Assembly (NCBI GenBank): GCA_963786805.1
Contig: CAWBAK010000004.1
Location: forward strand, 242,043 to 306,042
Source of the DNA: an uncultured Actinomycetes bacterium
Lineage (GTDB): Bacteria; Actinomycetota; UBA4738; HRBIN12
Reading direction: 5' to 3'
DNA: 64,000 bases
Below the pieces are notes generated by a model. It made no database searches, had not been told where the DNA came from, and saw only the letters and a list, made by a program, of their open reading frames with translations. Positions 60,160-63,704 of the stretch are shown piece after piece (position 1 is the stretch's first letter; every line of letters starts with the position of its first letter). A program made the position numbers and the translations under genes.

Positions 60160-60877
60160 ATGGCCGGAACCCTCTATCTGGGAACGTCGGGCTTCGCCTA
60201 CGACGAGTGGAAGCACGGCGTCTTCTACCCCGAGGGGCTGAAGAACCGCGAGATGCTCTCGTACTACGCGAGCCGGTTCCCCTCGGTCGAGATCAACTAC
60301 ACGTTCCGGCGCTTCCCGACCGAGAAGTCCATGGAAACGTGGAAGAGCCGAGACGCCGGAGGGGTTCCGGTTCACGCTCAAGGCGAACCAACGCATCACG
60401 CACTTCAAGACGGCTGCGCCGACGTGGACGAGGACGTCCGGGACTTCCTGGATCGCGCGAGGCTGCTCGGCGACCGGCTCGGGACGATCCTGTACCAGTG
60501 TCCTCCCACGCTGCAGTACGACCGGGCGCTGATCGAGGCGTTCGTCGGGTACCTGCCTCCGCAGCCGACGGCGGCGATGGAGTTCCGGCACCCCTCGTGG
60601 ATCGAGGCGAAGGAGCTGCTGTCCGAGCAGGGCATCGCCTGGTGCGTCGCCGAGACCGACGAGAAGGATCCCGGGCCCGAACGACCTGTCGTGGGAGCCG
60701 TTCGGGTTCCTCCGTCTGCGCAAGACGGAGTACGACGACGACGAGCTGTCCGCCTGGGCCGAACGCATCCGTCCCGTCCTCGACTCCGGCAACGACGTCT
60801 ACTGCTACTTCAAGCACGAGGACGAGGGCCACAGCACGAAGATGGCCGACCGCCTGCGCGCGACGCTCGCCGGCTAG
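60160..60877 (+). pseudogene. DUF72 family protein, with four single-base insertions (three within about 70 nt)
   Basis: Frame 1: MAGTLYLGTSGFAYDEWKHGVFYPEGLKNREMLSYYASRFPSVEINYTFRRFPTEKSMETWKSR. Then TPEGFRFTLKANQRITHFK in frame +1, about 5 codons in frame +2, then back to DVDEDVRDFLDRARLLGDRLGTILYQCPPTLQYDRALIEAFVGYLPP...EFRHPSWIEAKELLSEQGIAWCVAETDEKD. A fourth shift at about 60671 leads to ...PGPNDLSWEPFGFLRLRKTEYDDDELSAWAERIRPVLDSGNDVYCYFKHEDEGHSTKMADRLRATLAG*. Confidence 0.7.
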
Positions 60878-63361
60878 GTCGCGGGCGCGAGGCGAGCCTC
60901 GAGCGCGCGCTCGAGCTCCGCGATCCGCTCGGGATCGTCGACCTTGCGGCCGAGCTCGTCGCGGACGTAGAACGCGTCCACCACTCGCTCCCCGTACGTC
61001 GCGACCTTCGCGAGATGCACGTCGAGCTCGAGCTCGGCCAGCGTGCTCGTCACGTCGAACAGGAGGCCGATCCGATCGGGCGCCCCGACCTCGATCACCG
61101 TGAAGAAATCCGACGCGCCGTTGTCGACCGCGACGCGCACCGGAACGTCGTGACGCGGCGGCGGGTAGTGCTTGCGCTTCTCGCCGACCCGGTACGCGAG
61201 CGAGAGCCGGCCCTCGATCGCCCGCCGGAGCGTCCCGCGGAACTCGCGCCACCGCTCCTCCCCCACCTCGGCCTCGAACGCGCCCTCGACCTCGAAGACG
61301 TCCACGGCGACACCGTCGTCCGTCGTGAAGACCTGCGCGGTCAGGATCGACAACCCCGCGAGCGACAGCGCCCCGGCGATCATCGAGAGCAGCCCGGCGC
61401 GGTCGGCCGCCACGATGGTCACCGCGTACGTGCCCGGACGCGCGCCCGGCTCGGCATGGGTCCGAACGTCTCGGACCGTGATCGCCGGCGCGATCAGCGG
61501 GTACTGCCGCGCGATCCGTTCGGCCGGGAGCGCGAGCAGGTAGCTCCGGGGCATCCGCTCCAGGAAACGGTCGACGGCTTCGGCGGTCTCGGTTCCGAGT
61601 GCAGCTCTGATCGCGTCGACGCGTTCGGTCAAGCGCTCGGAGGTCTCCGCGCCGACATCGCCGCGCTCGAGCACGTGCTGAACCTTGGCGACGAGCTCGC
61701 GGACGAGCGTCGCCCGCCATGCGGTCCACGCGAGCGGTCCGGTCGCGCCGGCGTCGGCGATCGTCAGGAGGTAGAGCGCCGCGAGCCGTTCTGGATCGCC
61801 CACGCGCGCCGCGACCTCGAGCACGAGGTCCTCGTCGTCCAGGTCGCGGCGCGTCGCTGTGTCCGAGAGCAGGAGGTGCTCCGCGACCAGGAAGCCGGCG
61901 AGCGCCGAGGTCCCGTCGGGCACCCCCATCTGCGCGAGCGTCTCCTCCGCGATCGCGGCGCCGGCCGGAACGTGACCTCCACCGCCCGTCTTGCCGATGT
62001 CGTGGAGCAGCGCCCCGAGGCGGAGGGCCTGTGGGTCGCTCACGACGCGCACCGCCTCGGCGACGAGCGGCTCGGCGGCGTCGGGATCCTCGAGCAGGCG
62101 ATCCATCCCCTCGAGCGCGCTGCAGGAGGTGCACGTCGACGGAGAACCGGTGGTAGGGGTCGCGCTGGGGGCGGCATCGGACGGCCGACCACGCGGGAAG
62201 GAACCGGACGAGCGGCGCCCACCCGGTCGAGCGTCTCGAGCGCGCGGACGCCCTTCGGTCCCGGTGGCGAGGAGGTCCAGGAAGGCGTCGCGCACGTCGT
62301 CGGTCCAGTCGACGCGCTCGGGCAGCGCGGCGGCGTCGATCTGGTCGAGCGTTCCGGCCGGCATCACCCCGTGTTCGCTCGCCACCTGGACGAACGCGCG
62401 CAACACGCCCGCGGGTGTTGCTTCGATCGTCGACGGCCTCCGACGTCCCTCGCAGGTACCGGTCGAGGGCCGAGCGGGAGACGTGCTCGACCTGTCGCGC
62501 ATGCTCGAACACCGCGCGCATCAGCCCGTCGACGGCCGGGAGGGCCGGCTCGTCCTCGAACCCGAGGTGGCGGGCGACCGTCGGCTGCTGCTCGAGCACG
62601 ATCCGGTCGGTCGCGCGTCCGGTCTCGATGTGCAGGGCGCTGCGAACGCGCTCGAGGAACTCGTCCGCGGCGTCGACGGAACCGCGCTCGGCGGCGCGGA
62701 GCAGTCCCACGTCCTCGAGCGGCTCTCCGACGGCGGTCTCGAGCCACCGGAGCAGCTGGACGTCGCGGAGTCCTCCGGCGCCCTCCTTCAGGTCGGGCTC
62801 CAGGAGCGAGGAGACGGAACCGTGACGATCGGAGCGCGCGTCCGCGTCCGCGCGCAGCTGTTCGGCGAAGGCGCGGGGATCGCGCCGAACGTCATCGAGC
62901 ACCCGCCGTCGGGTGTCGTCCCACACCCGTTCGTCCCCGGCGAGGAGTCGGCCGTCGAGCATCGCCGTTCGAACGTCGAGCCGTTCGGCCGCGAGCGCCT
63001 CGGATGCCTCGGGCGTTCGGACACCGTGCCCGATCTGCAGTCCCGCGTCCCACAACGGGTACAGGAGCGACTCGGCGAGCTCGGATACCTCCTCGGGACG
63101 GTCGCCCTCGTGGGCGATCAGCAGATCGATATCGGAGTGCGGCGAGAGACGTCCCCGGCCGTAGCCGCCGAGCGCGACGAGGGCGACCCCCGCGGGCGGC
63201 GCGGCCGCTTCGAAGAGCGCTCGCAGACACCGATCCACCAGCTCGGCGCGCCGGCCGGCGGACCAACGGCCGTGATGACCGCGCGAGTAGGCGCGCTCGA
63301 GGGCGCCGAGCTCCTCGAGCAGCCGAGCGACGGGCGCCGGACGTTCGGCGTTGTCGGCCAT
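60874..63361 (-). pseudogene. glnD: [Protein-PII] uridylyltransferase/uridylyl-removing enzyme GlnD, with about 4 frameshifts in the central region
   Basis: The N-terminal NTase domain is intact: (...LGGYGRGRLSPHSDIDLLIAHEGD...LWDAGLQIGHGVRTP...). Shifts follow at about 62427, 62253, 62211 and 62118. Conserved segments appear in three frames (IEATPAGVLRAFVQVASEHGV.. / GVRALETLDRVGA / LVRFLPAWSAVRCRPQRDPYHRFSVDVHLLQ). An intact C-terminal region then follows, with the HD domain (LGALLHDIGK) and two ACT domains, to the stop at 60874. Confidence 0.8.
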
Positions 63362-63365
63362 CGCC

Positions 63366-63704
63366 TCAGAGTGCGTCGGGACCCATCTCGCCGGTGCGGA
63401 TCCGCACCACCTGCTCGACGGGCGTGACCCAGATCTTCCCGTCGCCGATCTTGCCGGTGCGCGCGGCCTTCGTGATCTCCTCCACCACGCTCGAGACCTG
63501 GTCGTCGTCGCACAGGACCTCGATCTTGACCTTCGGCACGAAGTCGACCTGGTACTCGGCGCCTCGGTAGACCTCGGTGTGGCCGCGCTGACGCCCGAAC
63601 CCCTCGACGTCGGTGGTGGTGAGGCCGGCGACGCCGATCCCGCGCAGGGCCTCCTTGACCTCGTCGAGCCGGTGCGGCTTGACGATCGCGACGACCAGTT
63701 TCAC
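63366..63704 (-). CDS. glnK: Nitrogen regulatory protein P-II (GlnB/GlnK)
   Basis: 112 aa: [64 protein letters not shown].... The T-loop Tyr51 context RGAEY is present. It is immediately upstream of glnD. Confidence 0.92.

Follow-up and report, generated by a model that had tools for sequence, protein, structure and literature searches.

In this work we analysed a 64-kb stretch of DNA (hereafter the window) in which the gene for GlnD, the enzyme that modifies the PII signalling protein, is broken by four frameshifts. We conclude that the frameshifts of glnD and of its neighbours are very probably insertion errors of the consensus and not mutations of the organism, and that the sequence most probably encodes a functional PII–GlnD pair. 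The locus would then be an ordinary nitrogen-signalling pair of an uncultured high-GC soil actinomycetote. The break in glnD is ascribed to the assembly because relatives carry an intact gene, selection on the gene has been retained, the same defect recurs across the window, the lesions are biased to insertions only, and insertions fall at sites where both alleles of the relatives stand side by side.

GlnD senses glutamine through two C-terminal ACT domains. Its N-terminal nucleotidyltransferase (NTase) domain modifies Tyr51 in the T-loop of PII with a nucleotidyl group, which is UMP in Proteobacteria and, in those Actinobacteria that have been studied, AMP; its HD domain takes this group off again. 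In the window, the gene of the PII (GlnB/GlnK) family (63366..63704, minus strand) is an uninterrupted ORF of 112 amino acids, which matches PF00543 over residues 1–106, covering the whole profile (E = 1.2e-32). As the initial annotation had stated, the protein is intact and retains the T-loop tyrosine, which is read as Tyr51 within the motif GAEY; the ATP-loop TGxxGDGKI is also present. The gene shows no indel in DNA alignment with relatives, and 10 further public contigs encode the identical protein. With 150 bits on the NCBIfam model for GlnB (equivalog cut-off 202) and 153 bits on that for GlnK (cut-off 181), the protein is assigned at the level of the GlnB/GlnK family.

The [protein-PII] uridylyl/adenylyl-transferase gene, glnD (60874..63361, minus strand), begins four bases past the PII stop, at 63361, and extends to 60874; its 2488 nt amount to 828 codons, stop included, plus four extra bases. 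As encoded, glnD yields fragments with TIGR01693 scores of 259.5 and 314.5 bits, and no single ORF passes the equivalog cut-off of 519.4. When the four bases are deleted, the resulting protein of 827 amino acids reaches 641.5 bits, and the codon alignment with relatives is gap-free. Of four relatives compared, three have their stop codon where the corrected gene has it, and one ends two codons later (829 amino acids). Pfam domains follow one another in the order expected of GlnD: NTP_transf_2 (58–92), GlnD_UR_UTase (167–296), HD (410–516), ACT (645–705) and an ACT-like domain (742–823). The catalytic motifs, GGxGRxxLxPxSDxDLL for the NTase and His...HD for the HD domain, defined after E. coli GlnD, are both present: the NTase motif GGYGRGRLSPHSDIDLL begins at residue 65, and the HD region contains DPYHRFSVDVH at residues 400–410 and LLHDIGK at 450–456. 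From its family, this GlnD is predicted to modify and demodify Tyr51 of PII.

The extra bases were located by three-frame translation and by DNA alignment to seven relatives. Each is a single base that shifts the frame by +1, and all are given here on the minus strand. The first, a G at 62428, lies at codon 310/311 and adjoins a column in which relatives have A or G, the window having G then A. The second, a G at 62253, follows codon 368, the window reading GAAG where relatives read GAA or GAG. The third, a G at 62213, follows codon 381, with GCCG in the window against GCC in four and GCG in three of the seven relatives. The fourth, a C at 62119, follows codon 412 inside the HD domain and adjoins a column at which relatives differ among themselves (CAG/CAA/CGG). 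These positions agree to within 0–2 nt with those initially proposed (62427, 62253, 62211 and 62118), and the gene identities and the order of the segments had likewise been read correctly, the segments recovered from alternate frames being contiguous in GlnD orthologues. The two ACT domains had also been recognized, but the description of the HD domain as intact was wrong: the fourth shift splits it between the conserved histidine residues at 400–410 and the HD dyad at 450–456. All four bases are missing from seven independent contigs of relatives from other samples (L001–L005, L091 and L092; 87–96% DNA identity), which have an intact GlnD of 827–829 amino acids in the same gene order. Four +1 shifts during expression would read out a full-length GlnD, so that programmed +1 ribosomal frameshifting or transcriptional slippage could in principle reconcile the sequence with a functional enzyme. 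This would however require four sites within 310 nt; the sites have no slippery motif in common, none of the seven relatives, all of which encode GlnD in a single frame, conserves them, and many unrelated genes contain the same shifts, so that we regard such recoding as next to impossible here. The GeneTack survey is described as having sought frame transitions conserved across genomes (PMC3711429); the transitions of the window resemble those cases in changing frame within a conserved gene and differ from them in being private to one assembly.

A real and very recent pseudogenization, in which +1 insertions would have inactivated glnD and several neighbouring genes in this strain, was considered next to the pattern of substitutions. 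It would leave PII permanently unmodified and always signalling nitrogen sufficiency. In its favour, the sequence does contain the extra bases, the PII gene is unbroken although that of its modifier is broken, and GlnD is absent from some bacteria. Nevertheless, glnD bears none of the marks of a pseudogene, such as relaxed selection with a dN/dS near 1 or lesions of mixed types. The 43 substitutions private to the glnD lineage of the window comprise 26 synonymous and 17 non-synonymous changes, compared with 22 and 12 in the intact relative L001, and are distributed 12/2/29 over the three codon positions (chi-square 26, p = 2e-6 against a uniform distribution). Relaxed selection is not seen downstream of the shifts either, where 15 synonymous changes stand against five non-synonymous ones after the last shift. 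This codon-position bias and synonymous excess indicate that the gene has not drifted as a pseudogene. Furthermore, the region contains only +1 insertions, with no nonsense mutations, deletions or larger indels; the same type of lesion affects at least 12 unrelated genes within 64 kb; most insertions of the region lie outside homopolymers, where slippage would act; most of them carry both alleles of SNPs of the relatives, which mutation does not yield; and the seven relatives are intact. We therefore hold pseudogenization to be very unlikely. The loss of control over PII modification, which the initial annotation had foreseen should the shifts be real, finds no support, since relatives are intact, purifying selection is kept and the same +1 lesion is present in at least 11 other genes. 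As for the sequence between the first and the last shift, we found no excess of substitution errors within the insertion cluster such as poor sequence quality might produce: this block of 103 codons has four private substitutions, compared with 19 and 20 for the blocks on either side.

The genes next to glnD show the same lesion. The DUF72 gene (60160..60877, plus strand) converges on glnD, the two 3' ends overlapping by 4 nt (CTAG), and contains extra bases at 60346, 60409, 60417 and 60669/60681. The initial annotation had counted four shifts within 320 bp in this gene; we recover all four, over about 325–335 bp. The corrected DUF72 protein has 237 amino acids, against 237–239 in relatives, and scores 208 bits on PF01904. 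Corrected glnD and DUF72 are collinear with their orthologues and equal to them in length, which shows that our reading of the frames is not due to chance. A single extra base is found in each of two further genes on the minus strand: at 59896 in an alpha/beta-hydrolase gene (59452..60142), whose counterpart in relatives encodes 228 amino acids with an Abhydrolase_11 match, and at 58809 in a histidine phosphatase gene (His_Phos_1; 58535..59183), which in L001 encodes 215 amino acids. In the interval 58000–63760, 11 single-base insertions and no deletion are private to the window, and L001, L091 and L092 have no private indel there.

Over the whole window about 22 frame disruptions affect 12 genes, about one gene in five being split by +1 insertions. 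A +1 shift accounts for 21 of the 22 disruptions in coding sequence, and the remaining one, a junction of the UPF0182 gene near 38145, is ambiguous between -1 and +2 and may be a deletion. Were insertions just as likely as deletions, 21 insertions out of 21 would have a probability of 5e-7. A codon-usage HMM detected 12 further frame switches that involve no stop codon elsewhere in the window. At a low switching penalty this model also produced numerous spurious short stretches at the ends of genes, and only switches supported by Pfam continuity or DNA alignment were counted. Stitched across the junctions, the proteins give one contiguous Pfam match each (GDE_N_bis, AI-2E_transport, Glucosamine_iso, ABC_tran, UPF0182, DUF1028, Zincin_2 and BPD_transp_2). 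The UPF0182 match reaches 928 bits over five junctions, which plain tblastn left unresolved and a purpose-written frameshift-aware alignment resolved, the best homologue being 81% identical at the protein level. The disruptions are clustered, with 10 coding-sequence insertions at 58.8–62.4 kb and five frame changes at 38.1–38.8 kb. This clustering could be due to a local drop in coverage or to a switch between strains. An insertion-biased mutator process in a soil actinomycete lineage, which would very recently have knocked out glnD together with many other genes, is in our view very unlikely. Were it true, the strain would amount to a natural experiment on how PII signals independently of GlnD, with a PII that is intact but can no longer be modified. 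Homopolymer slippage, whether biological or at basecalling, was also examined as the main cause and was rejected: at about nine of the 13 positions listed for 12 events, one of which can be placed in two ways, the extra base matches neither flanking base and is thus not a homopolymer extension.

The insertions tend to coincide with sites of strain variation. Six of the 11 insertions between 58000 and 63760 (seven if the DUF72 insertion is placed at 60669) juxtapose two alleles that segregate among relatives, whereas the background rate of this configuration is 9.2% (binomial P = 1.8e-4). Such a juxtaposition is characteristic of a consensus in which co-assembled strains have been merged. Private indels, in unrelated genes and at polymorphic sites, are what is expected of collapsed variants, and the window has them. 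The artefact that the initial annotation had kept as an alternative is thus the favoured reading, most insertions of the region being at strain-variable sites with both alleles present. We infer that reads of two or more close strains were most likely merged into a single consensus and that, at some of the SNPs that distinguish these strains, both alleles were probably written in succession in place of one being chosen, adding one base. With the relatives sampled, four or five of these 11 sites lack the both-alleles pattern, and strain collapse may therefore not account for every site. These sites could argue for random per-base insertion errors in a noisy, poorly polished, low-coverage long-read consensus, independent of strain variation. 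Such errors would agree with what is seen in the window, where every error that could be resolved is the insertion of a single base, usually not in a homopolymer, and where the errors are both widespread and locally clustered; long-read errors that fragment genes are well documented (PMC12007338). However, random errors should not coincide with polymorphic sites and copy their alleles, as is seen at 6–7 of 11 sites against 9% expected, and the homopolymer-linked pattern typical of long reads (PMC12007338) is not observed here. We consider this origin of the shifts very unlikely; as it is likewise an artefact, it would leave the biological conclusion unchanged.

The merging of strains into one consensus, as proposed here, has counterparts in the literature. 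That long-read assembly errors make genes look like pseudogenes is well described (PMC12007338), and collapsed haplotypes are described as introducing indel errors at nearby allelic variants (PMC8445201). As in both reports (PMC12007338; PMC8445201), single-base indels mimic pseudogenes in conserved genes and come to light when close relatives are compared. Two features set the window apart. Typical long-read consensus errors are mainly homopolymer-associated indels, deletions in the nanopore assemblies studied being tied to homopolymers of 2–8 nt (PMC12007338), whereas nearly all changes here are insertions and most are outside homopolymers. In addition, the signature of two alleles in tandem is deduced here from relatives and not from reads. 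This signature would provide a cheap, read-free way of spotting strain-collapse errors with the help of close relatives. Findings of a pseudogene, a frameshift or a truncated domain in this assembly are suspect until compared with relatives or reads, and the apparent loss of GlnD, the biological weight of which is small, should be kept out of metabolic or regulatory inference.

The pair shares with known actinobacterial GlnD/PII systems a PII protein with Tyr51, a glnD gene that follows directly (4 nt) and the NTase–GlnD_UR_UTase–HD–2 x ACT architecture. It differs from them in its upstream neighbourhood. Corynebacterium, Streptomyces and Mycobacterium have amtB-glnK-glnD operons, and the initial annotation had expected this usual arrangement, which does not apply to this clade: no amtB adjoins the PII gene in the window or in the loci of relatives examined, no Amt signature motif is found anywhere in the 64-kb window, and the gene directly upstream of PII encodes a GNAT acetyltransferase (or Ku in relatives) and not an ammonium transporter. 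In the window the 3' end of this GNAT gene (63745..64000, minus strand; Acetyltransf_1, 4.3e-8) is separated from PII by a 40-nt spacer and runs off the window end, and relatives have a double-GNAT gene of 308 amino acids at the same place. GNAT lies upstream of PII in L001 and L002, with Ku and LigD in addition in L001, and at the loci of the wider clade at which a PII hit was examined, the ends of the upstream ORFs resemble, by eye, GNAT, Ku or a small membrane protein.

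The PII gene (63704-63366, minus strand, 112 amino acids) is intact, as the initial annotation had it: its product matches PF00543 (E = 1.2e-32), keeps the T-loop Tyr51 within GAEY and the ATP-loop TGKIGDGKI, and is encoded identically on ten further public contigs. Directly upstream, across a 40-nt spacer, the window holds the 3' portion of a GNAT acetyltransferase gene (64000-63745, minus strand, Pfam Acetyltransf_1), and glnD (63361-60874, minus strand) follows four bases beyond PII. The four frameshifts reported in glnD were confirmed by three-frame translation, in which the reading frame steps 0, 1, 2, 0, 1, and by DNA alignment to relatives, which places single extra bases at 62428, 62253, 62213 and 62119, within two bases of the positions first proposed. 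No ORF of glnD as encoded attains the cut-off (519.4 bits) of TIGR01693, the NCBIfam [protein-PII] uridylyltransferase GlnD model: the scores are 259.5 bits for the N-terminal 314 residues and 314.5 bits for the C-terminal ORF of 542 aa. The fourth shift, at codon 412, separates the histidines of the HD domain (residues 400-410) from the HD dyad (450-456), so that no single frame encodes this domain whole, contrary to its earlier description as intact. The gene convergent with glnD, DUF72 (60160-60877, plus strand), is indeed broken as well, with extra bases at 60346, 60409, 60417 and 60669/60681; its 3' end shares with the glnD stop a 4-nt palindrome, CTAG, in the window and in the relatives other than L003. 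The same alignment places one extra base in a hydrolase gene (59896), one in a phosphatase gene (58809) and one, private to the window, in an intergenic spacer (58510). An extra base at 63731 lengthens a C-run in the spacer upstream of PII, at a site that is variable among relatives. Given these two intergenic cases, the insertions do not avoid non-coding sequence.

The relatives are seven contigs, five (L001-L005) found in other samples and assemblies via the exact PII protein and two (L091 and L092) added by a pattern scan of metagenome contigs. The lineage comprises MAGs of uncultured Actinomycetota from soil. DNA identity to the window across the region is 87-96% for all seven contigs, which share the order GNAT, PII, GlnD, opposite-strand DUF72, hydrolase, Rv1322-like gene, His_Phos_1; their intact GlnD and DUF72 proteins measure 827-829 and 237-239 aa, respectively. 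When its four extra bases are removed, the window glnD has 827 codons, is collinear with its orthologs without gaps, and stops at the same position as three relatives out of the four compared; in the fourth (L003, 829 aa) the stop lies two codons later. After this correction the protein reaches 641.5 bits on TIGR01693 and has the complete architecture NTase, GlnD_UR_UTase, HD, ACT, ACT, which bears out the initial reading of the segments as parts of one protein. DUF72, hydrolase and phosphatase, once corrected, have the lengths called in relatives. In L003 (CAZMNP010000018.1) a 459-aa Beta_elim_lyase gene (3613-4992) is inserted between glnD and DUF72, and the C-terminus of GlnD is two residues longer.

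The substitutions private to the window glnD lineage number 43, 26 synonymous and 17 non-synonymous, and are distributed 12/2/29 over the codon positions (chi-square 26, p = 2e-6 against an even spread); the intact relative L001 has 22 synonymous and 12 non-synonymous substitutions in glnD. Past the last shift lie 414 codons that would go untranslated were the shifts real, yet their substitutions are 15 synonymous and 5 non-synonymous; judged by this pattern, selection is intact in glnD. The lesions are also one-sided: all 11 private indels of the window in the interval 58000-63760 add a single base and none is a deletion, and comparison with relatives over this interval revealed neither nonsense mutations nor larger indels among its lesions, while L001, L091 and L092 have no private indels there. 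Most of the extra bases are not homopolymer extensions, which argues against replication slippage. A true recent pseudogenisation, by which control of PII modification would have been lost as the initial annotation envisaged, is contradicted by this selection signature and this lesion spectrum, and by the allele pattern and window-wide spread described below, and we regard it as very unlikely. Programmed frameshifting, for which no motif is present and which is excluded by the single-frame coding of the protein in relatives, is extremely improbable.

The most telling point against biological breakage, as far as sequence can tell, is the coincidence of the insertions with strain-variable sites, analysed at the allele level over 58-64 kb, where close relatives are available. 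At 62213 four relatives have GCC and three GCG, and the window has GCCG; at 62253 relatives have GAA or GAG and the window GAAG; at 62428 relatives have A or G and the window GA. The two alleles likewise stand side by side at 60417, 60409 and 58510, and also at 60669 under an alternative alignment, that is, at six of the 11 insertions between 58000 and 63760 (seven if 60669 is counted). The simulated background for this pattern is 9.2%, which gives a binomial P of 1.8e-4 for six of 11. Such a pattern is not a product of mutation, and a consensus drawn from the reads of two co-assembled strains yields it. We therefore propose a model in which reads of co-assembled strains would have collapsed into one consensus, leaving frameshift errors. 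A passage of PMC8445201 describes how haplotype collapse can introduce indel errors at nearby allelic variants, and apparent pseudogenes resulting from long-read assembly errors are well known (PMC12007338). Purely random consensus noise, itself still an artefact, leaves the coincidence with polymorphic sites unexplained and is an unlikely account of the whole, but plain random insertion error may contribute to some sites. Strain collapse during assembly is very probably the source of the frameshifts, and that they are artefacts, whatever the route, appears almost certain: intact selection, one-sided lesions, window-wide spread, non-homopolymer bases and strain-variable sites together argue that the breakage is not biological, and favour the artefact that had been offered as the alternative. 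Two alleles standing in tandem mark consensus errors due to strain collapse in a way that needs no reads.

A codon-usage HMM, run over the whole window to detect frame switches without a stop codon, found further switches near 1654, 19355, 23408, 25298, 42817, 45038 and 53435, one +1 switch in each of seven genes, and near 38816, 38620, 38433, 38338 and 38145. The seven singly shifted genes encode a glycogen-debranching-type protein (GDE_N_bis), an AI-2E transporter (AI-2E_transport), a 6-phosphogluconolactonase (Glucosamine_iso), an ABC exporter (ABC_tran), a DUF1028 protein, a Zincin_2 metallopeptidase and a BPD_transp_2 permease. The other five switches lie within about 670 bp of a UPF0182 membrane-protein gene (37922-40751, minus strand), a second dense cluster resembling glnD/DUF72. 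Every frame-stitched protein gives a single contiguous Pfam match spanning its junctions, UPF0182 scoring 928 bits over all five. Frameshift-aware alignment of UPF0182 to homologues resolves four of the changes as +1 and leaves the fifth, near 38145 in a Pro-rich variable stretch, as either -1 or +2; this one may be a deletion. Across the 64 kb, about 22 disruptions of a coding frame affect 12 genes, and 21 are +1, a direction assigned outside 58-64 kb from the frame analysis and the continuity of the proteins; such an outcome has P = 5e-7 if insertions and deletions are equally likely. This is a warning for every frameshift-based finding from this window. A short HMM frame excursion at 27751-27818, between an upstream ORF of no assigned identity and a gene judged by eye to be uracil-DNA glycosylase-like, is probably a gene boundary and was left out of the count.

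As is established for this protein family, GlnD modifies Tyr51 of PII through its NTase domain, using UMP in Proteobacteria and AMP in those Actinobacteria that have been studied; the HD domain undoes this modification and the ACT domains sense glutamine. In the organism itself the PII-GlnD pair is most likely normal and functional, and by analogy would work like the actinobacterial GlnK-GlnD module. In contrast with the amtB-glnK-glnD operon, the pair lies outside such a context: the amtB gene expected upstream was not found, the Amt signature motif being absent from the 64-kb window, and close relatives have a double-GNAT acetyltransferase gene instead, which in L001 (region 868-5961) is preceded by the non-homologous end-joining genes Ku and LigD. 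Given the 40-nt spacer, the GNAT gene and PII-glnD are probably co-transcribed. For the wider clade, inspection by eye of the end of the ORF that precedes PII suggests a GNAT or Ku protein or else a small membrane protein; many of the more distant relatives have Ku as the immediate upstream neighbour of PII.
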